The notes beneath the pieces are model-generated. The model was not told the origin of the DNA. It saw only the letters and a list, made by a program, of their open reading frames with translations, and ran no database searches. A stretch of 64,000 nucleotides of DNA, from positions 86,471 through 150,470 of the forward strand of contig JBAWWL010000004.1 of the NCBI GenBank assembly GCA_037146775.1. Direction: 5' to 3'. Shown piece after piece: positions 6,682-63,852 of the stretch; the first letter of the stretch is position 1, and the number at the start of each line of letters is the position of its first letter. The stretch comes from Candidatus Omnitrophota bacterium (GTDB lineage Bacteria > Omnitrophota > Gorgyraeia > Duberdicusellales > 4484-171). The position numbers and the translations under genes are program-made.

Positions 6682-8528
6682 CTACGCTCTTGGTGGAATA
6701 AGGCCATCCATAATCTTAAAGAAAAAATAGAAAAAAATCTAAAGTCTCCTTTAAGATTAATATTGTTTTCAAAACCTTTTATTAGTTTATCTGTAAAAAT
6801 TTCGTCGCCGTTGCCTATCTTGGATACATACTTTGTGACCATATCCTTGGACCATAACTCGGATCTAAAGGTATCGTTTCCTTTCAATCTGCGCCTTGCC
6901 CGCTCTTTTAAATACACTGGCCCAATCTTAAGCGCCTTCGCAATAAAAGGCAAAAGAAGCTCTTTAGGTTTATACCCTCTATCTGTAACTATGTCCCCCA
7001 GGACCGGATTAGCCATTTGAATAATTTTGGCATAAAATAATTGACTGTTTATGCGCGAAAAAATATCCGTTTCCCCTGCCCCTTTATACATTCCCAGAAA
7101 TGGCGTTTTGAAAATAAGTTCTAAAAATTCTTCGTCGAGATAAGGAGTTAATGTCTCGACGTAATGGCTTTCAATCCTTATTTCTTGCATAAAATACTTT
7201 CTTGTTGCTTCCTCTAAAAGGAAAATATAAAATCGAGCAAGCTTGTCGAATGATTCCGTCTTTTTGATATAGTGCTTTTCAAAGTCTTCCTTAATTGCGT
7301 GCGAATATTTATCAATAATATCTGCTCTTATATATCCCGTGTTTTTTAGTTGCCTTAAAATATCATTGAATTCCGCATCGAAGTTTTCAGACATAAAAAG
7401 TCTTATTGTTTCTGGGCTAATTTGTTCGGTAGAACGGGAAAAAGGTTTTAAAATTTCGCTGCCGAACAACCCTGTTATATTCACCCTGGAAAAATTACTT
7501 AATTGCGCAAATACATAGGGGAAGTTTGCCCGCAAAATAGGGGCAGTTCCGTCCGAAAAGTCTAATACTTTTAATGCGTAGTCTTCATAATTTTTTTCGA
7601 ATGCTTCACCTAAATGAATTGCCTTATAGTTTAGTCCCAATTTTTTGGAAATAAGTAAGGGTATCTCTATTTGCTTGCTGCCGGGCATACCATATGAGTA
7701 GCATAAAAAATCTTTTGGGTCTCTCTCAAGAAGTGCTAAATTTGTTCTAGAATCAAATCCGGCTGTTAATGAAAGCAGAAATTTATCCGCGTCTGACGTA
7801 TACACTCTTAAATTTTTCTTCATCAAATCACTGCACGCACATAACGCATCTTTTTCCGGAATAAGCTGATCTGCGCACAGCAAGTTTTCTGTGTGCCAAT
7901 ATTTTTGTACTTTTAATCCATTTTTATCAATTTTTAAAATTGACGCGTGGGATAGTTGTAAAATATCATTATAATATGTTTTATCAAACAACGGATAGTA
8001 GAATAGCGTGTGCTCTATCAGGGCTTTTTCGTTTAGTTTTGGTTGAATATCAAGAAATTTAAGTATCAGTTTCATCGAAGAAGAAAATATAAAATTATTG
8101 TCTTTATAATAATAAAATAAAGGCAAAGTATTTAGTTTACTGCTGACAAGAACAAGCTCTTTTATATAGTTATCATAAATGATAACGGTAAAATTTCCTT
8201 TTATGTAATGCGTCATACCCACATTACATTCTTTATACAACACAAACACATCGTTCATTGATAATTTTCTGGGGTTAACCGAGGTGAACTCATTGTGTTT
8301 CTTGCTAGAAAAGGCTGACCCAAATAAAAAAATAGAGAGATTGTCTTGGGACAAATAACAGCTCTCTGCCCGGGGCGCTGGGGCATAACTGATTTCTCCT
8401 TCGGAAAAAGTCGTTGTTGATATATTATTTTCTGGTATATCGGCACGGATACATTTTCTCGAAAAATTTTTTTCTCGATCGAACTTATTTTGTCTAAGAT
8501 TAATTATTCCTATAATGTCTGTTATCAT
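6678..8528 (-). CDS. asparagine synthetase-like protein lacking the N-terminal Cys nucleophile
   Basis: AsnB-like fold throughout (degenerate SGG.DS as TAGFDSR), but the N-terminus is MITDIIG rather than MCG. Confidence 0.55.
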   Translation of the reverse strand: MITDIIGIINLRQNKFDREKNFSRKCIRADIPENNISTTTFSEGEISYAPAPRAESCYLSQDNLSIFLFGSAFSSKKHNEFTSVNPRKLSMNDVFVLYKECNVGMTHYIKGNFTVIIYDNYIKELVLVSSKLNTLPLFYYYKDNNFIFSSSMKLILKFLDIQPKLNEKALIEHTLFYYPLFDKTYYNDILQLSHASILKIDKNGLKVQKYWHTENLLCADQLIPEKDALCACSDLMKKNLRVYTSDADKFLLSLTAGFDSRTNLALLERDPKDFLCYSYGMPGSKQIEIPLLISKKLGLNYKAIHLGEAFEKNYEDYALKVLDFSDGTAPILRANFPYVFAQLSNFSRVNITGLFGSEILKPFSRSTEQISPETIRLFMSENFDAEFNDILRQLKNTGYIRADIIDKYSHAIKEDFEKHYIKKTESFDKLARFYIFLLEEATRKYFMQEIRIESHYVETLTPYLDEEFLELIFKTPFLGMYKGAGETDIFSRINSQLFYAKIIQMANPVLGDIVTDRGYKPKELLLPFIAKALKIGPVYLKERARRRLKGNDTFRSELWSKDMVTKYVSKIGNGDEIFTDKLIKGFENNINLKGDFRFFSIFSLRLWMALFHQERR

Positions 8529-10927: not shown

Positions 10928-11841
10928 TTTCCACCGCGATAGAGCTGAAGTAATTCTTTATCCGAAATACCCTGCTCGCTTTTCCTGCCTAAGAAATAAA
11001 AACCGCTGGCAGCCTCATAAGAAGAACTTTTACGAATAAAATAGTAATCAAGATATTTCATCCAAAAAGTTAAAAAAACACAAAATACTCCAATCAATTT
11101 TCTCAAAATCTTCTTATCCGTAATGCTCATGAAAAGATACCGAAAACTCCATGCAAACGCGACAGCCGGCCCCACAACAATCCCCCTATCGATTTCCTGG
11201 AATTGCTTAAAAATGCGGCGGTGGCCTAAATCGGTAAAGCGGGTAAAATCGTATGGTTTGTGGTGTGTTTGCTGCATAAATGGTACTTCATTATAAACTA
11301 TGCCGTTCTTTACCAAAACTCGACGCGCCTCTTCGACGCAATGATAGGGATCCATAACATGTTCAAGAACGGCCTGCAGCACAATACCGTCAAGGGATTC
11401 GCTTGCGAAAGGAAGATTGTGTGCGTCGCAAATAATTTGTGTTCGAGGACCAAAAATAACATCGGTTTCAATACACGTTATATTTTTGTTTTCAACTAAA
11501 GCTTTCACCCCCACACCTAAGGTGCCGGCGCCGACAAGAAGTACCAATGGTTTCTGGCTGTGTGCACAAACAAGACGGATTATTTTCTCAAAGTTCGCGG
11601 CGGCCTTAAAATTCTTCGTATCCGTTGGTACGAGTCTGCGAAGTATTGCAAGAATGCTCTTTTTTCCGGTTTCCTGCTCGGTATCATGTTTTTTACTGAC
11701 AATGTCGTTAATGGTAAATATGCTGGTTTCTTCGTTTAACAACACCGGGATCCCATCCACAATCGGAAAATTTTTTTTACACACAGCGCATTGTATGACG
11801 GTTCCAAAAAATAATTTACCGCGACAACAGGGGGCACACAA
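10924..11841 (-). CDS. class I SAM-dependent methyltransferase with N-terminal Trm112-like zinc-finger domain
   Basis: CxxC...CAVCKKNFPIVDGIPVLL (Trm112-like) followed by Gly-rich LLVGAGTLG SAM-binding motif. Confidence 0.6.
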   Translation of the reverse strand: MCAPCCRGKLFFGTVIQCAVCKKNFPIVDGIPVLLNEETSIFTINDIVSKKHDTEQETGKKSILAILRRLVPTDTKNFKAAANFEKIIRLVCAHSQKPLVLLVGAGTLGVGVKALVENKNITCIETDVIFGPRTQIICDAHNLPFASESLDGIVLQAVLEHVMDPYHCVEEARRVLVKNGIVYNEVPFMQQTHHKPYDFTRFTDLGHRRIFKQFQEIDRGIVVGPAVAFAWSFRYLFMSITDKKILRKLIGVFCVFLTFWMKYLDYYFIRKSSSYEAASGFYFLGRKSEQGISDKELLQLYRGGK

Positions 11842-17024: not shown

Positions 17025-18431
17025 TCAGGTTTCTTGCAAAAAATCACGCGCCGTAAATTGTTCACATATTGCAAAAAATATCATTGTAAATACTACTTGA
17101 TACGAATAAGACAAACTAAATAAGTCCCACGTGAGCGCATATCCTCCCAAAAACGTACATAAACTCACCAGCAACACCCGCAATGACGATCTTGTCGGAT
17201 CGGAAAACGGTAATCGTCGCATAGACTGAAAGATAAGCTTCAGGTACGAGATGGTTAAAAAACAAAATATAGCCAAACCCATAACCCCAAACATCAACAC
17301 TGTATTAAAAAACCCCCAGTTATTGTCATAATATTCATAGGAAATATCAGAAAAACCATACCCCAAAAACATGTTATCTTTGATTCTCTGAAGCATGGGC
17401 TGTAACCCCTGTATCCTGGCATCAAAGGTATCGATATGGTGCCCCTCGCCCTTCATCAGAAGAAAGATCTGAAAGACCCTGCTAAATACACTTTCCTTGA
17501 TGTATGCGTCCGTCAACAAACCAGTGTTAATAAAAATAATCAGAACAAGCGCAGCGACGCAAATAAGCATAATAATATGGCCCACGGAACGCATTCTAGT
17601 AAAATAAACTCCTAATAGAATACAAAAGAACATGCCAAACATGAATCTTGTAGCAGAAAGTAACACACTTATAAATGCTATCATTGTTATGAAGTAGAGG
17701 TAATATTTTATGGGTGTGTTCTTCTTGTAAGGTAAAAGCAGCATTGGGCCGATATAGCATAGAATGAGGAGGCCCCACGCACCGGTAACCGGCCTTACTT
17801 CACCGGTAAGAGTATTGGTGATAACCATGCGCTCAAATGGAACAAGTACATTTATGAGTTCCTGATTGTTCATGAGCATATAAAACTGCGAAAAAAGCAG
17901 AAAAAATACGGCAGGAAAGAGCAGGTAGAAAAATTTGCACACCTTCTCTTTCGTGCCGACAAGGCCAAGAAAACTAATGAGCCAGGTCAGGTGAAATACT
18001 GGCCTCAAGAATATTATAGGCGTTTTGATGGAGGAGCTATTGATGGCGCCGCTGATAAAAGAAACCACGAGGTACAATATCAAAAGAGTAAAAGGAGTTT
18101 TTACTTGTATTTTTACGGGCTTTTTATAGAATAAAACTTTTAAAAACATGAGTACAGTAAAAATATCTGTAGGGGTAAAGGAAATGCGGGGTATAGGTTG
18201 AATGAGTGGCAGTCCAGCGCTCTCCGAGTTGAGAAAAAAAGATGCGGGAGTTTGCAGAAGTATGAAAAAAAACGCAATGAAAAAATAGTCTTTATTAGAA
18301 ACCCAGGCCCAAAGCAAAAGCGCTATAAAAAAAGGTAGAGCGAATACTTTGTGAAGATAAACTACATATACCGCCAGGGCCAGTACTATATAGAATAATA
18401 GCACCTCTTTGAAGAACTTTGGTTGTTTCAT
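17025..18431 (-). CDS. Wzy_C family membrane protein (O-antigen ligase / polymerase / possible PglL-like O-oligosaccharyltransferase)
   Basis: 468 aa, roughly 10-12 predicted TM helices with one large periplasmic loop containing Arg/His. Confidence 0.5.
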   Translation of the reverse strand: MKQPKFFKEVLLFYIVLALAVYVVYLHKVFALPFFIALLLWAWVSNKDYFFIAFFFILLQTPASFFLNSESAGLPLIQPIPRISFTPTDIFTVLMFLKVLFYKKPVKIQVKTPFTLLILYLVVSFISGAINSSSIKTPIIFLRPVFHLTWLISFLGLVGTKEKVCKFFYLLFPAVFFLLFSQFYMLMNNQELINVLVPFERMVITNTLTGEVRPVTGAWGLLILCYIGPMLLLPYKKNTPIKYYLYFITMIAFISVLLSATRFMFGMFFCILLGVYFTRMRSVGHIIMLICVAALVLIIFINTGLLTDAYIKESVFSRVFQIFLLMKGEGHHIDTFDARIQGLQPMLQRIKDNMFLGYGFSDISYEYYDNNWGFFNTVLMFGVMGLAIFCFLTISYLKLIFQSMRRLPFSDPTRSSLRVLLVSLCTFLGGYALTWDLFSLSYSYQVVFTMIFFAICEQFTARDFLQET

Positions 18432-28346: not shown

Positions 28347-28565
28347 CGCTGACTCCTATTATTTTTAGGGTTCGCGTCCATGACAACTCAGATCAAAACC
28401 GTCACCTGTTCTCGTCGGACGGTTCACCAAAAAATTGGCGGATAGAGATTCTCCGTCATTTTTAGATCAATAGAGCAATAGAAAATAGACCGCAATTGAG
28501 CCTGAAGTCTATAGTTCTATTATCTATTGCTCAATTGCTCTGTTTTTTTACCGAAGGTGAAAAAA

Positions 28566-28641: not shown

Positions 28642-28644
28642 AAT

Positions 28645-28766
28645 ATCAGATGTCAGAGGCCGGAGGTCAGAGATCAGATAGCAATTGTATATGGGATTTG
28701 CTTATTGTCAACATTTTATCTCTTTTATTGTCTAACCTCTGTCTTCTGACGTCTGATTTCTGATTT
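28645..28766. repeat. imperfect 15-bp inverted repeats (ATCAGATGTCAGAGG / CTTCTGACGTCTGAT) flanking an 80-bp AT-rich core
   Basis: Read directly from the sequence; 13/15 complementary. Confidence 0.4.
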
Positions 28767-28770
28767 TAAA

Positions 28771-28791
28771 TGGTGGTCGATACAGGACTTG
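28771..28791. repeat. direct repeat of the 3' terminal 21 nt of tRNA-Val (20/21 identical), 117 bp downstream of the tRNA
   Basis: TGGTGGTCGATACAGGACTTG versus TGGTGGGCGATACAGGACTTG at 28908. Confidence 0.7.
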
Positions 28792-33169: not shown

Positions 33170-33963
33170 TACTGGCTTACCTCCTTAACCGCGACTTCAA
33201 TCGCTATTTTTTCTTTTAAAATTTCTTCGGTTAAATTTAGATAGGCTTTTGCCCCCACGCATATCGGATCATAAAAATGTATGGGCTTACCAAAACTGGG
33301 TGCTTCGGCAAGTCTGATGTTGCGCGGGATAATGGTATTAAATGTTTTTTCTTTAAAAAAATTCCTTACCTCTTCGATGACCTGTAACGTAAGCCGTGTC
33401 CTAAAATCCGCCATAGTCAACAAAACGCCCCTGATCTCCAAGCCAGGATTTAACCGTTCTCGAACAAGATCGGTGGTATGTAATAGTTTTGAAACTCCTT
33501 CCAAAGCATAATATTCACATTGTATGGGCACAATAACCCCATCAACAGCCACCAGCACATTAACGGTCAAAAGCCCCAGGGATGGCGGGGCGTCAATAAT
33601 AATATAGGCAAATTTGTCTTTTATTTTATAGAGCTCCTCTCTTAAGCGCATTTCTCTATTTTCGATAGCAACAAGCTCAATCTCTCCTCCGGTAAGCGCA
33701 ATACACGAAGGAAGAATGTATAGTCCGGACCATTGGGTAGGATAAATACTTTCTTCTATGGCCGCTGTTCCAGAAATAATATCATAGATTGATTGTTTGT
33801 TTTCGCTTGCAACCCCTAAGCCTGATGTAGCGTTACCTTGGGGATCCATATCAACAAGCAGTGTTTTTTGACCAGCAAGAGCTAAATATGATGCTAAATT
33901 GATGGCGCTGGTAGTTTTACCAGTACCGCCCTTTTGATTACAAATACCGATTATTTTTCCCAT
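33169..33963 (-). CDS. parA: chromosome partitioning ATPase ParA/Soj
   Basis: Deviant Walker A KGGTGKTT. Confidence 0.85.
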   Translation of the reverse strand: MGKIIGICNQKGGTGKTTSAINLASYLALAGQKTLLVDMDPQGNATSGLGVASENKQSIYDIISGTAAIEESIYPTQWSGLYILPSCIALTGGEIELVAIENREMRLREELYKIKDKFAYIIIDAPPSLGLLTVNVLVAVDGVIVPIQCEYYALEGVSKLLHTTDLVRERLNPGLEIRGVLLTMADFRTRLTLQVIEEVRNFFKEKTFNTIIPRNIRLAEAPSFGKPIHFYDPICVGAKAYLNLTEEILKEKIAIEVAVKEVSQ

Positions 33964-33976
33964 TATGGTTTGACGG

Positions 33977-34000
33977 TACCGTTTCCACGTGGAAACGGTA
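33977..34000. promoter_or_regulatory. parS-like perfect 24-bp palindrome TACCGTTTCCACGTGGAAACGGTA, 14 bp upstream of the parA start codon
   Basis: Core TTCCACGTGGAA is identical to the parS core; perfect dyad symmetry. Confidence 0.55.
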
Positions 34001-34150
34001 TACTTAGTTATTAAAAATAGCTTTTAATATATAAATAAGTATATTGCGATATTCTTGTATTTTTTCTAAATATAATATCATTGTAATCGCACATACCCCC
34101 CTTTGTCAAGAAAATTTTGTATTAGATGCCTAAAAAATTGCGTTTTGAGC

Positions 34151-34166
34151 GTTTCCACGTGGAAAC
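34151..34166. promoter_or_regulatory. parS-like 16-bp palindrome GTTTCCACGTGGAAAC (copy 2)
   Basis: Exact repeat of the copy-1 core. Confidence 0.5.
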
Positions 34167-34631
34167 TTTACCTACCTAAAACAAAAATCCAGACTATTTT
34201 GTACGATAACGTAATTACTGCTGCTGTCAACCTTTGAAATAATAGTACTGTTTCTCAATCAATTGTTTTGGTTGTTCGTTTAATATAATAACTATGCAAA
34301 AATAGAATAATACCGTTTGCAAATTATTTTTATGCTTTTCAATAGCAAGATATTGCCATATGTTATTGTTTTAACACTCGCGGAGTACGGTAGTAAGTAT
34401 TGATTGTCATATTCTAGGGCCTTTTTGACGCAACAAGCAGAATAAGTATGCTACCATAGATTCTTAAGAAACATTCGAAGACAGCTCAATAGCAATTATA
34501 TAGTATGTTCTTAAATTGTCACCATGCTGAAAATTTTATCCTTATTAACCAATCTGCAGGTATCATAAAGGCATGAAGCACATTTATGCTTGATTACCAA
34601 AGGTGGTTATTGAAAAAAGACCTTTTTGTAC

Positions 34632-34649
34632 CGTTTCCACGTGGAAACG
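34632..34649. promoter_or_regulatory. parS-like 18-bp palindrome CGTTTCCACGTGGAAACG (copy 3)
   Basis: Exact repeat of the core. Confidence 0.5.
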
Positions 34650-34765
34650 TCTAACTTGTAGATAATCCGGGATGTGTGGCTATGCGAATTGCTGTAGGTT
34701 AATAAGTCGCCTTGAGGTTTACTCTGTGCGGAAAATTCTGATATTAGAAAAAACTGTTGTTTTTA

Positions 34766-36202
34766 CTATGTTTTACACGTTTTCACGTGGAAACCTGTTT
34801 TGGCTACACGCATTTGGTAGGAAAGGGTGAGGATGTTTTGAACAAACCAATATATAGTAAGACAGGAGGGGAAAGTATAAAAAACTACTCCCATAACTAT
34901 AGACATGACCAATCCGATATTTTTTTGATCCGACGAAAGAGAAGAGGACGAACTAATTTTTTGTTGCACTATTCCTACAATTACGATTAAGATGGGTAAG
35001 ATGTTGATATAATCTACTGGCTGCGGGAAGGGGAGTTTAAATGCGTGATCCGGCAATGATAAATCTTTAATCCAAAGAAATGGCTGGCCTTTCAACTCTA
35101 CAAATTTTAGCAGTACTTGCCAAAGCGCGATAAACACCGGGAATTGTAGCAACATAGGTATACAGGACCCTGCGGGATTGACTTTGTTTTTTTTATACAA
35201 TTCAAGTGTTTCTTTATTAACTTTTTGCGGGTTATCCGGATACTTTTTTCTCAATTCTTCGATTTCCGGCTGAAGTTCTTGCATTTTTTTCATTGCCTTG
35301 GTGCTCATCATAGTGAAGGGGAACAAACAGCAATAAGTGAATAGAGAGAGAAGAATGATACTAATACCCCAGCTTTTCGTAAAAGAGAAAAAGAATTCTA
35401 ATAAACCTACCAAAATCAAGCCAATACCATGAAAAAACCCGTAATTAATAATGCTGTGCAAACCGAGTTTTTTGAGTTCTTTTTCTGAAAGCGGCCCTAT
35501 ATATAGAGATATTTCTTCTGGGACTGAAACCAATTCCAAAGAAAGCGTGTTTTTGGTTGGCAAAATATTCGCCATATACGAGCCCTTCAGCAGAGAAAGG
35601 CAGAAATGTTTTGCGCTTATCCCCACGAAAGCTACATTACTTACTATGGTGTTCTTGGCTTGCTTGAGAGATACTTTTTTGATGGTTTCGTTTTGTGTAT
35701 AGAAAACCTCTAAAAATTGTTGTTCTAAGTTTTTGTCGCTCAAGCTGTTAGAAAATATATTTATCCGCTGAGGAAGGGGAGAGGAGAGTTTTATTTTAAC
35801 TAAAAAGTCGCTAAAAATAAACTCTTTACGATTGCCTTGCGCTGAAATAAAGACAATTCTATCGTCTTGTACTTGACTTTTAAATTCTTTATCTTTATCT
35901 TGAGAGATAAAGCCGATGTTTCTAAAAGGGAGCTCTTCGTTGTATGATTTGATGGAAAGTTTTTTAATGTAACCTCCTCGCGGAGAATATGTTACAATAA
36001 ATTTACCGATGCTGGCTTGGGGGAGTTCACTATTGTCGTCTACCTCTGTTGCTGTTTCGACGGTTGGGGTTTCTACCGCAGCCGGCGCTGTTATTTGGGT
36101 GGCTGGCGGCAAAGTACGGGGGGCATATTTGGAAAGAAAATAGTTATAGCCGATAAAAAATAACAAAGTAAGAAAAATAGCCGGAAATAATCTTTTTTCC
36201 AT
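34766..36202 (-). CDS. yidC: membrane protein insertase YidC
   Basis: N-terminal TM, large periplasmic domain, conserved C-terminal five-TM core (PMLLQFPVFIALW...); synteny with yidD and rpmH. Confidence 0.85.
   Translation of the reverse strand: MEKRLFPAIFLTLLFFIGYNYFLSKYAPRTLPPATQITAPAAVETPTVETATEVDDNSELPQASIGKFIVTYSPRGGYIKKLSIKSYNEELPFRNIGFISQDKDKEFKSQVQDDRIVFISAQGNRKEFIFSDFLVKIKLSSPLPQRINIFSNSLSDKNLEQQFLEVFYTQNETIKKVSLKQAKNTIVSNVAFVGISAKHFCLSLLKGSYMANILPTKNTLSLELVSVPEEISLYIGPLSEKELKKLGLHSIINYGFFHGIGLILVGLLEFFFSFTKSWGISIILLSLFTYCCLFPFTMMSTKAMKKMQELQPEIEELRKKYPDNPQKVNKETLELYKKNKVNPAGSCIPMLLQFPVFIALWQVLLKFVELKGQPFLWIKDLSLPDHAFKLPFPQPVDYINILPILIVIVGIVQQKISSSSSLSSDQKNIGLVMSIVMGVVFYTFPSCLTIYWFVQNILTLSYQMRVAKTGFHVKTCKT
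34789..34804. promoter_or_regulatory. parS-like palindrome GTTTTCACGTGGAAAC (copy 4, one mismatch) at the extreme 3' end of yidC
   Basis: 15/16 match to the core. Confidence 0.45.
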
Positions 36203-42014: not shown

Positions 42015-42015
42015 G

Positions 42016-42200
42016 TGGTAAACCCTAAACCCGAAATCCTAAACTCTAAACAAACTCAAACTCAAAAACCCCATATCCAAAACGTTTTTGGTTTTAGGTT
42101 TATAATTTTGGATTTGTTTAGGATTTAGTCCTTCGACTTCGCTTGAGGACTAATGGTGAGCGCAGTTGAAACACTAGAGCTTAGTATTTAGAGTTTGGAA
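42016..42200. repeat. structured intergenic repeat element, copy A
   Basis: GGTAAACCCTAAACCCGAAATCCTAAACTCTAAACAAACT (7-bp periodic C/A-rich arm) plus complementary G/T-rich arm ...GTTTAGGATTTAG...TTTAGAGTTT; fills the gyrB-stop to gyrA-start spacer. Confidence 0.6.
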
Positions 42201-42204
42201 AAAC

Positions 42205-44673
42205 ATGCAAGAACAAACAAATAAAGGAAAAATTATAACCCGCTATCTCGAAGAAGAGATGAAGGATTCCTACCTCTCTTACTCGATGAGCGTTATTGCA
42301 GGCCGTGCCCTTCCGGATATCCGTGACGGGCTTAAGCCGGTACAACGCAGGATTATGTATGCGATGCATGATTTGCATCTTCGGCATAACCAGTCGCATA
42401 AAAAATGTGCGAGGATAGTCGGAGAATGTCTTGGTAAATATCATCCGCACGGAGACCTTTCGGTTTACGATGCTCTCGTGAGGATGGCCCAGGATTTTTC
42501 TTTGAGGTACCCGCTCGTAAACGGGCAGGGTAACTTTGGCTCGATAGACGGCGATCCTCCCGCAGCAATGCGTTATTCCGAAGCGCGGCTTTCCAGGATC
42601 GCAGACTACATACTCCAAGATATCGAAAAAGAAACAGTCAAGTTTTTCCCTAATTTCGACAATTCACTCACTGAACCGGAAGTGCTTCCGTCGGTTGTCC
42701 CCAATCTTTTGATAAACGGTGCAAGCGGCATCGCCGTTGGCATGGCAACCAATATGCCGCCTCATAATTTAGGGGAAGTGTGCGATGCGCTGGAGCATTT
42801 GCTAGACAACCCCACCGCCTCAATCAAAGAGCTGCATAAATTTGTAAAAGGGCCGGATTTCCCAACCGGTGCGATAATCTGCGGCAAAGCAGACATACTT
42901 AAAATGTATGAAGAAGGTAAGGGAAGATTAATCCTTCGCGCAAAATCGACCATTGAACACGAAAAGGGAAAATCCCAAATAATTTTTAACGAAATACCTT
43001 ACCAATTAAACAAGACCAATCTCATCGAGGCAATAGCAGGTCTTGTTACTGACAAAAAAATAGAGGGCATCTCCGATTTACGTGACGAATCGAACAAGGA
43101 AGGTATACGCATAGTCTTGGAGCTTAAAAGAGATGTCGAGCCGCAAATTATTCTAAACCAGCTTTATAAACACACAAATCTTGAAACAACTTTTGGCGCG
43201 ATATTTCTTGCGCTTGTAAACAGGAAGCCCGTCATCCTTACGCTTCGCGAAATGCTGACTCATCACATTAGCTTCCGTAAGGAAGTAATCGTAAAGAGGT
43301 CGAAATTTGAGTTAGATAAAGCGCAAAAAAGAGCACATATTTTAGAAGGTTTAAAGGTTGCCTTGAAACATTTGGATGAGGTAGTTTCGATCATTAAAAA
43401 ATCAAAAAATCCTCAAGAGGCAAAAGAAGGCTTGATGAAAAAATTCTCCCTGTCGGATTTACAGGCGCAGGCAATTCTGGAAATGCAGCTGGTGAGGTTG
43501 TGTACGTTGGAGAGAAATAAGATCGATGAAGAATATTTGGAACTAATTAAGAAAATCGAGCTATATAACCTTATTCTATCTTCAGAAAAAAAACAGGAAG
43601 AATTGATAAAGCAGGAACTCAAGGACTTGAGAGAACAATTCGCCGATAGCAGGCGCACAGAAATTGTTGCGCAGAAAGAAGAGATAGAGATAGAAGATTT
43701 GATCGTGGAAGAAGATATGGTAATAACCATATCTGGGTCGGGGTACATTAAGCGGTTGCCGCTCACCAGTTACCGACAGCAAAAGCGCGGCGGCCGCGGC
43801 GTTACCGCCATGGCAACTTCGGACGAGGATTTCGTAGAACATCTTTTTGTTGCTTCCAGCAAGGACACCCTTTTGATATTTTCCGACGAAGGGAAGATCT
43901 ACCCGGTAAAAACATACGAAGTCCCGGTTGGCAGCCGCACCTCTAAAGGAAGAGCCATTATCAATCTTTTAAATTTAACCACCAAAGAAAAAATTACCAC
44001 GGTTTTATCCATAAAGGATTTCGATCCCAAGCAGTGTATCGTGATGACTACGCAAAAAGGTATGATCAAGAGAAGTTCTCTCGAACTTTTTTCGAACATG
44101 CGTAAAAGCGGCATCTGCGCGATTACGCTTGATAGAGACGACCGTCTTGTCGGGGCAAGGCTCTGTGAAGATAAAGACGAAGTAGTTCTTGCGACTAAAA
44201 AAGGGATTGCGATACGATTTAAGATGGCCCAGGTGCGTCCTACCGGACGGCAATCCCAGGGTGTGAGAGGAATGAAGCTGGCGAAGGACGACATAGTGTT
44301 GGGTATGGTGCTTGTTCGGGGAAGTATTAAGAAGGAAGAGTTGTATCTTTTTACCGCGACCGAGAACGGTTTTGCCAAACAAACACATATTGAGCAATAC
44401 CGGCTTCAATCCAGAGGCGGCAAAGGGATTATCAATATAAAAATTTCGCCAAAAATCGGAGAGGTCAAGGGTTTTACTTGCGTACGTCAAGACGAGGAAC
44501 TCGTCTGTATTACGCAAAAGGGCATACTTATTCGCACCAAAGTGAAAGATATCCGCGTCTCGGGTCGTTCTACCCAGGGGGTGCGGATTATTAACGTAGA
44601 AAAAGGTGACAAAGTTTCGTCCATCGCCCGGATTATTCCCGAAGAAGAAGCGCCGGTGAGTCAAACTTTATAA
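42205..44673 (+). CDS. gyrA: DNA gyrase subunit A
   Basis: Active-site region, QRR, six C-terminal beta-pinwheel repeats; 822 aa. Confidence 0.95.
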
Positions 44674-44768
44674 TAAGAGAATTTGTTGACAAAATAGATT
44701 TTGCATCTAAAATGATTCGTTTTCAACTCTTGATTTTTCTGTATAGTTTTCGGAAAGCGTAAGTGTAC

Positions 44769-44843
44769 GTCCCCATCGTCTAGCCTGGTTCAGGACATCG
44801 CCCTTTCACGGCGACGGCGCCAGTTCAAATCTGGCTGGGGACG
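44769..44843 (+). tRNA. tRNA-Glu (TTC)
   Basis: Manual fold; anticodon loop CTTTCAC; T-loop AGTTCAAATCTGG. Confidence 0.75.
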
Positions 44844-45581: not shown

Positions 45582-47411
45582 ATGTGCGGAATTTTTGGTT
45601 ATATAGGCAAAGAAACAGCCCTTGCGGTTTTTTTAGATGGGGTTGCGCGGCTGGAGTATCGCGGTTACGATTCCTGCGGCGCAGTAGGGATTAGAGGAAA
45701 TAAATTTTTCCTTACCAAACGGACGGGAAAAATTCATCAGTTGCGCGAAGAACTTAAGGATGCGCTGAAGGACAAATACCCCATAGGAATTTTTCATACG
45801 CGTTGGGCAACGCATGGAAAACCCAGTTATGCTAACGCCCATCCTCACCTTGATTGCCGCCAGGAAATTGCCATCGTTCACAACGGTATTATCGAAAACT
45901 ACCTCGAATTGAAAGAAAAACTACTTAAAGAGGGGCATGTGTTTGTAAGCGAAACCGATACCGAAGTTATTGTGCATTTGATTGAAAAATTTTACAGCAG
46001 TTCCTTGGAGCAGGCGGTGTATAAAGCGGTTAAGCAATTACGGGGATCGTTCGCGCTCGGTGTCATTTCAATAAGAGAACCGGAAAAACTGATTGGCGTC
46101 AGGAAGGGCAGCCCCTTGATTGTCGGTATGAGCAAGAACGGATTTTTTATTGCCTCGGATATTCCGGCCATCTTGCCGTTTACTCAGGAAATCGTTTATC
46201 TGAAAGATGAGGAACTGGTAATCTTAAAAAAAGACAATATCAACATTTTCCATTTTAAGGGCGAGCCGGTGAAGTTGGAAATAGAAAAGATCCACATGCG
46301 GCCACAAGACGTGGAAAAAAAAGGTTATGAGCATTTCATGCTTAAAGAAATATATGAGCAACCGGAGATTCTGCGCAAAACTCTCTCGCTCTATGTAAAG
46401 GCTGGCCGCATTGTGCTGCCTCAGTTGAATTTAAGCGATACATTCTTGAGAAAAGTTAAAAATATATTTATTACTGCGTGCGGAACCGCCTACCACGCAG
46501 GTTATGTGGCCAAATATTTTTTAGAAAAATACTGTGACGTAGATGTGGAAATAGACACGTCATCGGAATTTCGTTATCGGACGCTGCGCGTTACTAAAAA
46601 CGACCTGTTGGTTACTATTTCTCAGTCAGGAGAAACTGCCGATACCTTAGCGGCGGTGCGGGAGATAAAAAAGGCCGGCGTTAAAGTGGTCAGTATTTGT
46701 AATGTGTTGGGGTCCAGCCTCGTGAAGGAAAGCGATGGATTGATTTTTTCTCATGCCGGCCCGGAAATCGGTGTCGCATCCACCAAGGCATATACCGCGC
46801 AGATACTTTCTTTTTTTCTGCTCGCCTTGTATATAGGTAATTTGAAAAAGACCATCACGGAACACACTTTTGAAGAAATGCTTAAAGAATTAGGATGCAT
46901 GCCAGGTTTCCAGCAAGATATTTTAAAAAAGGGTGGCGAAGTAAAAAAAATAGCGCATACGTTTTCCAAGTTTGGCTGCTTTCTCTTTTTAGGCAGAGGG
47001 GTTAATTATCCCTCGGCTTTGGAGGGTGCCTTAAAATTAAAAGAAATTTCTTATATACCGGCGGAAGGCTATGCTGCCGGCGAAATGAAACACGGGCCCA
47101 TCGCACTTATCGATGAGTACCGCGGAGTTGTGTGTATCGCCCCCAGGGACAACCTATATGAAAAGATGGTTTCCAATATCCAGGAAATAAAAGCCCGTAA
47201 AGGAAAAGTATTGTCGATAGTCAACCACGGCGATACCGCCGCGAGCCATATCAGTGACGCGCTTATTCATATACCGGAATTAAAATTTCAAATTTTTTCC
47301 CCACTCCTTGTTGCCGTAGGCCTACAGCTTTTCGCCTATTACGTCGCAAAAAATTTAAATTGCGAAATAGACCAGCCACGCAATCTTGCTAAATCCGTTA
47401 CAGTTGAATAG
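45582..47411 (+). CDS. glmS: glutamine--fructose-6-phosphate aminotransferase
   Basis: MCGIFGY N-terminus and two SIS domains; 609 aa. Confidence 0.9.
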   Translation: MCGIFGYIGKETALAVFLDGVARLEYRGYDSCGAVGIRGNKFFLTKRTGKIHQLREELKDALKDKYPIGIFHTRWATHGKPSYANAHPHLDCRQEIAIVHNGIIENYLELKEKLLKEGHVFVSETDTEVIVHLIEKFYSSSLEQAVYKAVKQLRGSFALGVISIREPEKLIGVRKGSPLIVGMSKNGFFIASDIPAILPFTQEIVYLKDEELVILKKDNINIFHFKGEPVKLEIEKIHMRPQDVEKKGYEHFMLKEIYEQPEILRKTLSLYVKAGRIVLPQLNLSDTFLRKVKNIFITACGTAYHAGYVAKYFLEKYCDVDVEIDTSSEFRYRTLRVTKNDLLVTISQSGETADTLAAVREIKKAGVKVVSICNVLGSSLVKESDGLIFSHAGPEIGVASTKAYTAQILSFFLLALYIGNLKKTITEHTFEEMLKELGCMPGFQQDILKKGGEVKKIAHTFSKFGCFLFLGRGVNYPSALEGALKLKEISYIPAEGYAAGEMKHGPIALIDEYRGVVCIAPRDNLYEKMVSNIQEIKARKGKVLSIVNHGDTAASHISDALIHIPELKFQIFSPLLVAVGLQLFAYYVAKNLNCEIDQPRNLAKSVTVE

Positions 47412-47553
47412 ATTAGATGGTAAACCCTAAACCCGAAATCCTAAACCCTAAACAAACTAGAAATTACAAATCTAAAATTCCAAATATTTGTTTCGAGTTT
47501 GTTATTTATGGTTTATTTGTTTAGGATTTAGTGTTTAGAATTTAGAGTTTAAA
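47412..47553. repeat. structured intergenic repeat element, copy B (41-bp 5' arm 40/41 identical to copy A)
   Basis: GGTAAACCCTAAACCCGAAATCCTAAACCCTAAACAAACT ... GTTTAGGATTTAGTGTTTAGAATTTAGAGTTTAAA; fills the glmS-stop to rsmI-start spacer. Confidence 0.6.
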
Positions 47554-48222
47554 ATGTTGTATATCATTGCCACCCCCATAGGAAATTTAGAAGATATTAC
47601 TTTGCGCGCGCTCAAGGTCCTTAAAGAAGTTGACACGGTGCTGGCAGAGGATACACGTAAGACTGGATTTTTATTGGCACATTTTGGTATAAAAAAACAA
47701 CTGGTAAGTTTATTTGAACATAATGAAGTAAAAAAAATACCCTGGTTGATTCAAGAGCTTTCTGGCGGGAAAAATATGGCATTGGTTTCTGACGGCGGCA
47801 TGCCGACCCTTTGCGATCCCGGCTATAAGCTGATACGCGAATGCAGAGAAAAACATATCGCGCTTACTGTGCTGCCGGGAGCTTCAAGCATTACCTCCGC
47901 CTTAGCATGCACTTCCGTGCCTCACGACAAATTTGCTTTTATCGGATACCTGCCACGCAAACACAATGAACGCAAGAAGGTATTCGAGAAGGTGATATCT
48001 TGGGGCTGTGCAATTGTTTTTTTTGAATCGCCATACCGGGTTTTAAGCGCCCTAAAAGATATCAATGAATTTGTGGGTAACCGCAGAGTGGCTATTGCAA
48101 GAGAAATGACCAAGAAGTTTGAAGAAATTATTGAGTGTAACTTGGAAGACGCAATAAGGCACTTTGAAAAAACGACCCCTCGCGGAGAATTTACCGTTAT
48201 TCTGGATGCCCATCAAGCATAG
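47554..48222 (+). CDS. rsmI: 16S rRNA (cytidine1402-2'-O)-methyltransferase
   Basis: MLYIIATPIGNLEDIT tetrapyrrole-methylase-like N-terminus. Confidence 0.8.
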   Translation: MLYIIATPIGNLEDITLRALKVLKEVDTVLAEDTRKTGFLLAHFGIKKQLVSLFEHNEVKKIPWLIQELSGGKNMALVSDGGMPTLCDPGYKLIRECREKHIALTVLPGASSITSALACTSVPHDKFAFIGYLPRKHNERKKVFEKVISWGCAIVFFESPYRVLSALKDINEFVGNRRVAIAREMTKKFEEIIECNLEDAIRHFEKTTPRGEFTVILDAHQA

Positions 48223-61638: not shown

Positions 61639-63507
61639 ATGTTATTTACTTTTTCCGAGCCTGAGATAAAAGAAATATTAGCTGCCCAGCACGATCAACC
61701 TTACGTTTTTTTAGAATCCGCAACCCCTCGTCCCGGCGAACACACCTCGTTTTTATTCAACCATTTCAGTGAAATAATTACTTTTCGTTGGGGTGATGAC
61801 ATTAATGCATTTTTTAGAACCATAGAAGACCGCATACAAAATAATTTTTGGCTATGCGGCTATTTTACTTATGAATTTGGCTATTTTCTGGAACCGGCAC
61901 TATATCATTTGCGAGAAAAAAGTAACACAGTGTTAGCATGGCTTGGTGTAAGCAAGGAACCTTTTCGTTTCGACCATCACAACCACAAGCCGTCTTTGGG
62001 CCGCGCCCCTCTTTTTTATCGGGTAACGCATCTAACGTCCACTATCGACAAAGAAACCTATCGCGATCATATCGCTATCATAAAAAGTTACCTAGAAACA
62101 GGCTTAACATATCAGGTTAATTATACGTTTAAAATGAAGTTCGATTTTACAGGTGATCCGATAGATTTATATCTGGCTTTACGCCGTGGGCAACCCACTT
62201 CCTATTTGGCATGCATTAATACCGGCAGCGAAAATATTCTTTCCTTTTCCCCGGAGCTGTTTTTCCGTCTCTCTGGGGACACCATTGTCACTAAGCCGAT
62301 GAAAGGAACGCATGCCAGAGGTCTCGCTAAAGACGACGATGAATATTGCCGCCGCCAACTGAAACGGGACAAGAAAAGCCGAGCGGAAAACATCATGATA
62401 GTTGATTTATTACGCAACGATTTAGGTAAAATCGCTTATCAAGTGAACGTGCCGGTTCTCTTTGAAACAGAACAACATCGAACATTGCATCAGATGACCT
62501 CAACTGTTCGGGCGACCCTCCCGCGCCAGACGTCAGCCGCGGATATTGTCAAAGCGCTTTTTCCTTCCGGTTCGGTAACGGGAGCACCGAAAATAAAAAC
62601 TATGCAGCTTATAAAAGATTTAGAAGCCCAACCGCGTAATATTTATACCGGAGCAATCGGTTATATTTCTCCACAACATGAGATGTGTTTTAATGTTGCC
62701 ATTCGTACGATTTCTATTTCCGGCCACAAAGGAGAAATGGGTATTGGCGGAGGGATTGTATATGATTCAACTGCTGAAAATGAATATGAAGAAGCCTTGC
62801 TTAAATCAAAGTTTCTCACGCAAGAATTTCCTCAATTTTCGCTTATTGAGAGTTTATTATGGCAGAACAATAAAGGGTATTTTTTATTGGAAGAGCATCT
62901 TAGGCGGCTGAAAAATTCCTGCAGCTATTTTTCTATTCCGGTCAATATGTATAAAATACGCCGGGAACTAAAAATGTTGGAGAAAAAAATAAAAGGCGAA
63001 AAAACCAAGATCAGAATAATACTATCTACCGGCGGCGAACTTGCGATAGAGAGCCAACCCTTGGAAGGCATGACCGAATCAGTAACAATAAAGGTTAGTC
63101 CGCACAGGGTAAATCCTCAAGATATTTTTCTTTATCATAAAACTACCCGGCGTAAATTATACGATGAAGCCTTGAAGGGGGCGCGCATGGAAGGATTCTT
63201 CGAAGTTATGTTCTTAAACGTTCACGGCCAAGTTACTGAGGGAAGCGTGAGCAATATTTTTATTGAGAAAGGCAAACTATTATACACACCGCCCACAAAA
63301 TGTGGACTTTTAGGCGGAGTTTTAAGACAACATCTTCTAGATAAAGGTGTGGCCAGGGAGAGAGTGCTTTATATAAAAGATATTTTATCGGCAGATACGT
63401 TATATATAGGTAATTCTGTGCGCGGCTTAATCAAGGCAGAAATTTCCCTTGCTGATTTTGAAAATAAAAGTACAATTGAAATACAGGTGGAAAACTGCAA
63501 GAGGTAA
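61639..63507 (+). CDS. pabBC: aminodeoxychorismate synthase component I fused to an aminodeoxychorismate lyase-like (class IV aminotransferase) domain
   Basis: Chorismate-binding domain (PIKGT, GAPK, IYTGAIGY motifs) up to about aa 390, then a class IV aminotransferase fold to aa 622. Confidence 0.7.
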   Translation: MLFTFSEPEIKEILAAQHDQPYVFLESATPRPGEHTSFLFNHFSEIITFRWGDDINAFFRTIEDRIQNNFWLCGYFTYEFGYFLEPALYHLREKSNTVLAWLGVSKEPFRFDHHNHKPSLGRAPLFYRVTHLTSTIDKETYRDHIAIIKSYLETGLTYQVNYTFKMKFDFTGDPIDLYLALRRGQPTSYLACINTGSENILSFSPELFFRLSGDTIVTKPMKGTHARGLAKDDDEYCRRQLKRDKKSRAENIMIVDLLRNDLGKIAYQVNVPVLFETEQHRTLHQMTSTVRATLPRQTSAADIVKALFPSGSVTGAPKIKTMQLIKDLEAQPRNIYTGAIGYISPQHEMCFNVAIRTISISGHKGEMGIGGGIVYDSTAENEYEEALLKSKFLTQEFPQFSLIESLLWQNNKGYFLLEEHLRRLKNSCSYFSIPVNMYKIRRELKMLEKKIKGEKTKIRIILSTGGELAIESQPLEGMTESVTIKVSPHRVNPQDIFLYHKTTRRKLYDEALKGARMEGFFEVMFLNVHGQVTEGSVSNIFIEKGKLLYTPPTKCGLLGGVLRQHLLDKGVARERVLYIKDILSADTLYIGNSVRGLIKAEISLADFENKSTIEIQVENCKR

Positions 63508-63540
63508 TATATCCCTTATTCGCACGAATAAGGGATATAT
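63507..63540. promoter_or_regulatory. 34-bp palindrome ATATATCCCTTATTCGCACGAATAAGGGATATAT (16-2-16) immediately upstream of arsR, overlapping the pabBC stop
   Basis: Perfect inverted repeat, read directly. Confidence 0.6.
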
Positions 63541-63818: not shown

Positions 63819-63852
63819 ATATATCCCATATTCGCACGAATAAGGGATATAT
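63819..63852. promoter_or_regulatory. second copy of the 34-bp palindrome (one mismatch) immediately downstream of arsR
   Basis: ATATATCCCATATTCGCACGAATAAGGGATATAT. Confidence 0.6.

Follow-up and report, generated by a model that had tools for sequence, protein, structure and literature searches.

The stretch of DNA analysed here (the window: 64,000 nt of contig JBAWWL010000004.1, from a Candidatus Omnitrophota bacterium) carries, between glmS and rsmI, a long palindrome whose two arms are arrays of degenerate heptamers. We refer to it as element B; a second copy, element A, lies between gyrB and gyrA. These four genes, together with dnaA and dnaN upstream, were identified by NCBIfam. The glmS–rsmI junction is organised as follows:

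45582..47411, + strand: glmS, the upstream gene, with stop codon TAG at 47409-47411 (NCBIfam TIGR01135, 777 bits)
47412..47553, + strand: element B, a 142-nt heptamer-array palindrome occupying the whole interval from the glmS stop to the rsmI start
47418..47458, + strand: 5′ arm of B, TGGTAAACCCTAAACCCGAAATCCTAAACCCTAAACAAACT, with heptads TAAACCC, TAAACCC, GAAATCC, TAAACCC
47459..47514, + strand: inner part of B, half CA-rich and half GT-rich, which makes up the inner stem and loop
47515..47553, + strand: 3′ arm of B, ATTTG TTTAGGA TTTAGTG TTTAGAA TTTAGAG TTTAAA, abutting the rsmI ATG
47554..48222, + strand: rsmI, the downstream gene, with ATG at 47554 (NCBIfam TIGR00096 aligned from residue 1)

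A preliminary description of this sequence had a CCCTAAA hairpin filling the spacer, and the filling is exact, with 142 nt between TAG and ATG. Syntenic relatives conserve the N-termini of RsmI and GyrA and the C-terminus of GlmS, and the gene boundaries can therefore be relied on. The hairpin likewise stands, but CCCTAAA is only one heptad variant among CCCTAAA, CCCGAAA, TCCTAAA and CTCTAAA: each arm has four degenerate heptads, following YYCKAAA in the 5′ arm and then TTTMGRR in the 3′ arm. Identity at lag 7 is 0.59 in the glmS–rsmI spacer and 0.45 in the gyrB–gyrA spacer versus about 0.27 in other spacers (22 spacers of at least 50 nt), and the window arrays are specific to this lag, with none at lags 8-10. 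A further comparison sets the 0.59 against 0.32. Element B thus has the run of at least three head-to-tail 7-nt units that defines heptanucleotide simple repeats, and its inverted arms (47421-47453 and 47518-47551), about 85% complementary, are terminal inverted repeats as in MITEs, the miniature transposable elements with inverted repeats. One long hairpin is predicted for its RNA, with -34.3 kcal/mol (z -2.95) for the + and -40.5 kcal/mol (z -6.53) for the - strand; R1, a covariance model built from ten copies of the family, scores it at 133.5 bits (+) and 107.5 bits (-). Because the heptads carry TAA in the 5′ arm or TAG in the 3′ arm and seven is not a multiple of three, the arrays close all three frames, which would by itself keep them out of open reading frames (ORFs).

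Element A belongs to the same family and is interrupted by a smaller repeat:

42015..42204, + strand: element A, filling the 190-nt gyrB–gyrA spacer including the nested insert; R1 97.6 bits (+)
42130..42180, + strand: 51-nt foreign insert within the 3′ arm of A, a decayed member of a second family of small repeats
42181..42196, + strand: distal rest of the 3′ arm of A, TTAGTATTTAGAGTTT, followed by GGAAAAAC and the gyrA ATG at 42205

The 5′ arm shared by the two copies, TGGTAAACCCTAAACCCGAAATCCTAAAC(C/T)CTAAACAAACT, is identical at 40 of 41 positions between 47418-47458 and 42016-42056, exactly as first noticed. A 35-mer taken from it has exactly two matches in the window at up to one mismatch, at 42017 and 47419, and none in 100 shuffles. 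The inner part of B differs from that of A. The 3′ arm had been described as ending directly before the start codon, which holds for B at rsmI; in A, 8 nt (GGAAAAAC) separate TTTAGAGTTT from the gyrA ATG, and the same ending is seen in the gyrB–gyrA copy of a relative, L059.

The RsmI relatives (the nearest 82% identical, the following ones at most 71%) all belong, where named, to Omnitrophota. The order gyrB–gyrA ... glmS–rsmI is kept in five syntenic relatives, while the 5-kb contig of the closest one, L054, spans the glmS–rsmI end alone. In L059 (GCA_027371495.1), members of the CCCTAAA-type family occupy both junctions and three other positions. Elsewhere the element is replaced by unrelated heptamer hairpins and is, at this site, dispensable: nnnTCAG / CTGAnnn hairpins occupy gyrB–gyrA in L055 and L057 and glmS–rsmI in L055, TCCATAG / CTATGGA hairpins occupy glmS–rsmI in L057 and L060, a CA/TG-type hairpin is found in L054, and a GCATAGC / GCTATGC family occurs in L056 spacers. 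Roughly half of the spacers in L055, L057, L059 and L060 hold heptamer-type hairpins, among them CACG, ACAG and CCAAG types and one 9-mer type, and nesting is frequent. In L061 (CP070684.1, a complete 1.28-Mb genome), on the other hand, the gyrB–gyrA spacer is 14 nt long and no such element occurs in 20 kb. As side observations on these loci, gyrA contains an intein in L056 and L059 and gyrB one in L059 (L056 2246-5797; L059 183-3005 and 3148-6924), and a 143-aa ORF is inserted between gyrB and gyrA in L056.

One of these sister families is also present in the window:

28643..28772, no strand assigned: third heptamer hairpin, nnnTCAG...CTGAnnn family, between two minus-strand tRNA genes

The heptads of its arms are ATATCAG ATGTCAG AGGCCGG AGGTCAG AGATCAG ... 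CCTCTGT CTTCTGA CGTCTGA TTTCTGA, the heptad family found at gyrB–gyrA in L055 and L057. We also noticed at 28463-28545 a more degenerate AATAG / CTATT heptad palindrome adjoining a tRNA gene; a similar sequence (gagcaatagagaatagaacaatag...) lies in L060 at about 7430-7540, after the tRNA downstream of gyrA.

The placement of the arrays is strongly biased towards intergenic DNA, as in heptanucleotide simple repeats: strict lag-7 arrays number 18 in intergenic and 1 in coding DNA of the window and six relatives, where coding DNA is about nine times longer. In 602 kb of collected loci, R1 finds 37 places, which in the window are the two known copies only; 25 lie between co-directional ORFs, 3 in divergent and 2 in convergent spacers, 6 at contig ends and 1 inside an ORF call. 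Copies follow the direction of the genes in 13 cases and run against it in 2 (two-sided binomial, about 0.007; 11 versus 2 when one copy per genome is counted), where the strand with the higher score was taken as the orientation if it led by at least 5 bits. Seven of the 13 same-direction copies are R1 training sequences, although gene direction played no part in training, and since the loci are fragments this count does not separate the direction of transcription from that of replication. Scatter through coding DNA or random orientation, which the preliminary description had named as the marks of a plain MITE without regulatory coupling, is therefore not what was found.

Identity between copies is higher within genomes than at the same site between genomes, which points to copying or conversion within genomes. 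Window A and window B are 88% identical once the insert is removed, and L059 A and L059 B, which share an almost identical inner segment of 44 nt, are 87% identical. At the same site, the window and L059 copies agree at 82%, for A as for B, and comparisons across both site and genome range from 74 to 84%. The symmetry of the palindrome persists as the inner sequence changes. In an alignment of family copies, of the kind suggested as a check on covariation, 89% of the cells are paired and 19 are double-change cells, versus 9.9 ± 2.6 in shuffled alignments (0 of 500 shuffles reach 19). These compensatory double changes fall mostly in the inner helix; the outer arms, being invariant, are uninformative on covariation. 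The arms are not exact mirror images, with CCCGAAA opposite TTTAGTG in several genomes, and the number of heptads differs between copies. Elements begin 0-9 nt past the stop and end 0-8 nt short of the start, and the flanks left outside them total about 5-13 nt. Insertion into an ordinary operon spacer of 5-15 nt gives that outcome, so the exact stop-to-start filling can be explained in this way.

The element itself serves as a landing pad for smaller inserts. Nested copies of two small, GC-richer families break arms or loops in window copy A and in L026, L030, L042, L048, L055, L057 and L059. The insert of copy A belongs to a family of the form CCTTCGACT..CGCT.AGG..TGAGCG..GTCGAAGG. We observed this family, more fully CCTTCGACT-CGCTCAGGA..TCCTGAGCG-AGTGAAACG-AGTCGAAGG, nested in heptamer hairpins of the window (42130-42180), L059 and L026; it has no Rfam match, and its two L059 copies (10935-10983 and 18251-18299) are identical, lie within a larger repeat and align, like the L026 insert, with the decayed window copy. 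The other family, CCGCC..GGCGGATCCGCC..GGTGGCGG, has four mutually complementary GC blocks that allow two alternative pairings. It recurs in heptamer-hairpin arms of L030, L042, L055 (9884-10000), L057 (12489-12693 and 13999-14193) and L059 (7884-8050), and gyrB–gyrA of L059 retains a mere 'cggaag' remnant of it.

The family extends far beyond these relatives. A 20-mer within the 5′ arm of B, CTAAACCCGAAATCCTAAAC, is found at 51 loci when the GTDB species set is searched, in 39 assemblies that bear about 11 phylum-level labels; chance would give about one match in 596 Gb. With taxonomic labels of metagenome-assembled genomes (MAGs) used as deposited, these are Omnitrophota (8), WOR-3, Planctomycetota, Verrucomicrobiota/Lentisphaeria/Kiritimatiellales, Bacteroidota, Chloroflexota, Patescibacteria, Nitrospirota, Nitrospinae, one Rhodospirillaceae MAG and one ANME-1 archaeon. 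Most loci have the same layout: a C/A-rich heptad arm, an inner stem that is first CA-rich and then GT-rich, and finally a heptad arm rich in G/T. Since the window has two copies, L059 at least five (by R1) and the assembly JBAZGN01 at least four (by the 20-mer, four loci), the earlier argument for a dispersed element rather than chance is well supported. Another 69 heptamer arrays, belonging to other families, lie in the same 51 loci, which indicates that genomes with this family tend to carry heptamer arrays generally. A Logan assembly contig with the same rsmI gene (SRR12676968) begins inside the element, as repeats do in assembly graphs. A separate observation concerns the WOR-3 MAG JAGLZA01 (L019, L028, L032, L040, L045, L049 and L052), where the 20-mer sits inside a longer repeat of about 200-300 nt in long non-coding stretches, its left flank (..acagaagagagtttaattaattctaatttt) being conserved and an inverted match lying about 400 nt off; this looks like a different, larger MITE-like element bearing the same heptads.

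We searched for the element among known sequences with little return. In gathering mode, Rfam leaves it unmatched in the window and seven relatives, where tRNAs and one PyrR site alone pass; in E-value mode, the two elements matched nothing but hairpin models of plant miRNAs, scoring 26-37 bits where the thresholds are at least 90. In the literature searched, neither inverted heptamer-array hairpins nor this sequence was found described, and the sequence string matched only a CRISPR table (CRISPRs are clusters of short, regularly spaced palindromic repeats). A metagenome scan with the neighbouring PMT_2/TPR protein gave nothing beyond a distant TPR match. A phage origin was rejected: the 20-mer has no match in viral contigs and blastn gave none in phage records. 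The sole plasmid match, an unannotated and very AT-rich stretch at about 43.2-43.7 kb of Rahnella aquatilis plasmid CP036489.1 (L063), is probably unrelated or foreign DNA; it contains CCCTAAA-like arrays and then inverted GGTTTAG arrays, and may be foreign or eukaryote-like.

The lack of a Shine-Dalgarno (SD) sequence at rsmI had been read as a sign of coupling between the element and SD-less downstream genes. The absence is real, with no GGAG, GAGG or AGGA in the 20 nt before the start; however, a census for systematic loss finds these motifs at -18 to -4 in only about 15 of 48 window genes, so that their absence from about two-thirds of the genes is the norm in this genome. The element-free 14-nt gyrB–gyrA spacer of L061 likewise has no SD, and in JBAZGN01 good SDs follow the copies (for example ...GGGTTTATCTTAAAGGGAGGAGTTATG). 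On the census and on the copies that precede an SD, SD coupling was rejected as unsupported. Copies and sister families are also found beside tRNA genes and in divergent or convergent spacers.

Neither element shows a terminator or promoter signal above shuffle expectation, and their AT-rich stems followed by A-runs differ from the GC-rich stem and U-tract of an intrinsic terminator. Strand-specific RNA folding was also rejected as a general property: B is more stable on the - strand, yet across 33 copies, compared with crude element boundaries, the strands are favoured 16 versus 17 times, the equality expected of a DNA palindrome. When a ribosome footprint on the glmS stop was modelled by forcing the 13 nt after the stop codon to be unpaired, the predicted mean unpaired probability of rsmI -15..+3 rose from 0.38 to 0.77. 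In relatives, the same model gives 0.59 to 0.62 (L059), 0.52 to 0.48 (L055) and 0.32 to 0.17 (L060), weak or opposite effects that arise because the freed heptads re-pair in a shifted register. Unfolding by a ribosome at the stop thus holds for window B and is too inconsistent in relatives to be a general mechanism. Just upstream of the tRNA gene at 44769-44843, we note a near-consensus sigma-70-type promoter at 44686-44713 (TTGACA, 16-nt spacer, TAAAAT), which suggests a transcription unit boundary between gyrA and the glmS–rsmI group.

On balance, the element is probably a non-autonomous hairpin repeat with heptad-array arms, similar to MITEs and to the paired repetitive extragenic palindromes (REPs) called REPINs, co-transcribed with its neighbours and tolerated in short spacers. 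We propose the name 'heptad palindrome' for repeats with such arms of inverted heptamers. They would spread or be homogenised at the DNA level, via a folded single-strand intermediate or gene conversion, and this would account for both the orientation bias and the conserved asymmetric mismatches of the arms. Heptad arrays presumably lengthen and shorten through replication slippage, and copies would persist where they are least harmful, in the very short spacers of co-transcribed genes. Transcribed within the gyrB–gyrA and glmS–rsmI mRNAs, the element may fold into an AU-rich, mismatch-studded hairpin that brings stop and start codons near each other. Any effect on rsmI expression, be it occlusion of the start or relief by a ribosome terminating on glmS, would then be a side effect and not its raison d'être.

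Several observations weigh against this reading. No direct duplication is visible in the flanks of the copies (GTGG and GGAAAAAC for A, ATTAGA and none for B), the exact ends being uncertain. Only two copies of the CCCTAAA-type family occur in 64 kb, and L057 and L058, 99.9% identical with 13 substitutions and no indels, show no filled/empty polymorphism within the species, although a pair so alike is uninformative on this. No transposase, REP-associated tyrosine transposase (RAYT) or other mobilising gene appears among the best 25 of 90 Pfam families of the 42 window proteins, those listed being housekeeping. Genomes whose RsmI proteins share only 68% identity have elements that are about 80% identical in nucleotide sequence. 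Selection for a function in place could equally be the cause of this identity, of the orientation bias and of the presence of elements at the same two junctions across several genera.

Such selection is the core of the strongest alternative, which we still consider unlikely, namely that an intercistronic RNA hairpin hides the SD-less start until opened by the terminating upstream ribosome (translational coupling), or directs RNase processing or stabilisation, and so sets the gyrB:gyrA and glmS:rsmI ratios. The span of the elements from stop to start in the window and relatives fits it, and some heptamer hairpin is present at glmS–rsmI in all seven genomes keeping that adjacency and at gyrB–gyrA in five of seven syntenic genomes. 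The 13:2 orientation with gene direction, the stem preserved by compensatory changes and the modelled gain in rsmI start accessibility are also in its favour; moreover, coupling through RNA unfolding is established for other gene pairs (PMC12548453), and heptamer arrays of Beggiatoaceae also abut SD-less start codons (PMC4679880). However, the unfolding effect is not general (L059, L055, L060), the compact relative L061 does without the element in its 14-nt gyrB–gyrA spacer, members of the class stand beside tRNA genes and in divergent or convergent spacers, and certain copies precede a normal SD, in addition to SD absence being already the majority state in this genome and to sense and antisense stability being no different (16 vs 17). 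A selected RNA hairpin also leaves unexplained the 7-nt periodicity common to unrelated families. That periodicity and architecture, repeated in many unrelated families of the same genomes, are what purely local growth without mobility would account for, with slippage of 7-nt units in each spacer and template switching that copies one arm from the other. Heptad counts do vary among copies, and heptanucleotide repeats are the commonest long simple-repeat class in most prokaryotic genomes, with slippage proposed as their source (Mrazek 2007, as relayed in PMC4679880). Local growth cannot yield, though, two loci whose arms match at 40 of 41 positions, with a non-periodic TGG head and an irregular CCCGAAAT heptad in common, nor the near-identical 44-nt inner segment of the two L059 copies, nor one 20-mer in 39 assemblies. 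The shared non-periodic sequence contradicts it as a complete explanation, which makes it very improbable; slippage may nonetheless explain the variation in arm length.

A DNA-level site, either a heptamer array for a nucleoid or replication protein or a folded single-strand recombination site between genes resembling integron attC, seems to us similarly remote. The arm sequence is kept over large phylogenetic distances, the arms share the same mismatches (CCCGAAA opposite TTTAGTG) in several genomes, and the window adjoins dnaA–dnaN, all of which would fit. Yet the arms do not match the attC cores RYYYAAC / GTTRRRY, the neighbours are housekeeping genes in conserved synteny and not cassettes, and no integrase or recombinase appears among the listed protein families of the window. 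The heptads of sister families are wholly different, so no single sequence-specific binding protein fits, and copies in relatives are scattered over 20 kb and not limited to the origin region. Beyond the hairpin repeat favoured above, a broader proposal is more tentative and falls well short of probable: heptad palindromes may constitute an undescribed, cross-phylum class of mobile DNA, copied by an enzyme for folded single strands and overwriting the same intercistronic sites in Omnitrophota and at least ten other phylum-level lineages, with some copies (gyrB–gyrA, glmS–rsmI) co-opted as hairpins that set the translation of SD-less genes.

Among described repeats, REPs, bacterial interspersed mosaic elements (BIMEs) and REPINs of E. 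coli and Pseudomonas are also short non-coding intergenic palindromes often lying between co-directional genes (PMC3116915, PMC2817692, PMC3733652), and REPs are also landing sites for other elements (PMC1525189). REP/REPIN sequences carry a GTAG or CGTC head (PMC3733652); the element starts TGGTAAACCC, TTAAACTC or ATAAACTC and has neither tag at either end. Both form hairpins, are non-autonomous and cluster by genome. The element is 130-190 nt long versus 20-40 nt for a REP and about 100 nt for a REPIN doublet, and, unlike these, it is AT-rich with heptamer-array arms. RAYTs, which are Y1 transposases usually flanked by the repeats, accompany REP/REPIN; here none is among the listed Pfam families of window proteins. 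REPs are lineage-specific, unlike the arm of this element under about 11 phylum-level labels. The MITEs Correia/NEMIS, RUP and ERIC resemble the element (PMC2229807, PMC10969869) in being 100-200 nt long with inverted ends, co-transcribed, tolerated in operons and able to alter mRNA folding. In the element, by contrast, the entire unit is one hairpin with 7-nt periodicity. No target-site duplication is recognisable at its imprecisely placed ends, and the collected loci, where no search was aimed at one, showed no parent insertion sequence whose ends match.

Intergenic heptanucleotide repeats, of which the Calothrix heptamers are known as short tandemly repeated repetitive (STRR) sequences, share with the element a 7-nt unit, interspersed degenerate copies, intergenic bias and a position between co-directional ORFs. 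In both, arrays end a few nucleotides from SD-less starts and a patchy cross-phylum spread has been read as horizontal transfer. TAACTGA arrays of Beggiatoaceae, cyanobacteria and Bacteroidetes mostly end 1 nt before SD-less starts and are scattered across phyla (PMC4679880), GGGNATC arrays in Xanthomonas and Nostoc lie between aligned ORFs (PMC4692102, which also cites the Calothrix heptamers), and heptamers near start codons (recF/recO) were tested in Nostoc (bioRxiv 10.1101/2022.06.06.494920). The known repeats are direct arrays, with one inverted case among 170 TAACTGA sets (PMC4679880), whereas the element is a unit hairpin of 130-190 nt in which an inner stem lies between two opposed complementary arrays, with units YYCKAAA / TTTMGRR instead of TAACTGA.

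Integron attC sites are, like the element, imperfect palindromes between co-directional ORFs near the next start, with conserved mismatches that distinguish the strands; in attC, the mismatches mark the strand to be recombined. The attC cores are absent from the element, whose heptads CCTAAAC / GTTTAGG have one A or T too many, and the integrase and cassettes of integrons have no counterpart among the listed window families and the conserved housekeeping neighbours. Identity with attC was rejected, since the core sites do not fit. Palindromes of eukaryotic organelles (Volvox, the repetitive hairpin-forming elements of sponges, the 'palindromic microsatellites' of Fusarium) are also hairpins that repeatedly invade intergenic DNA and nest, unlike the element in having no heptad rule and no sequence similarity to it. 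Compared with all of these, the difference is threefold: inverted heptamer arrays joined as a unit hairpin repeat, an architecture common to many families that turn over at the same sites, and one family that keeps at least 20 identical bases across phyla.

Two further palindromes were noticed in the window, apart from the heptamer families. Four copies of a perfect 16-nt palindrome, GTTTCCACGTGGAAAC, 146-482 nt apart, occupy 33972-34794 on the minus-strand side of the dnaA region, between a 264-aa ORF ending at 33963 and an ORF at 34766-36202; they may be candidate binding sites of a partition or origin-associated protein. A 34-nt palindrome with a perfect stem, ATATATCCCTTATTCGCACGAATAAGGGATATAT, occurs twice near the window end, at 63507-63540 and 63819-63852, 312 nt apart.

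If heptad palindromes are a real class, they add a repeat type to the non-coding repeats of bacteria, beside REP/REPIN, MITE, CRISPR and simple repeats, and they join the unexplained excess of heptanucleotide repeats in prokaryotes with palindromic intergenic elements. Such elements end contigs in metagenome assemblies and occupy up to about half of the intergenic spacers in some Omnitrophota, a load that affects gene-start calling, operon prediction and binning. A 20-nt arm found under about 11 phylum labels, including an ANME-1 archaeon, would mark gene flow among uncultured groundwater and sediment lineages. Finally, a long hairpin that reaches the start codon, in a genome where most genes have no SD, would be a natural test case for initiation on structured intercistronic RNA.

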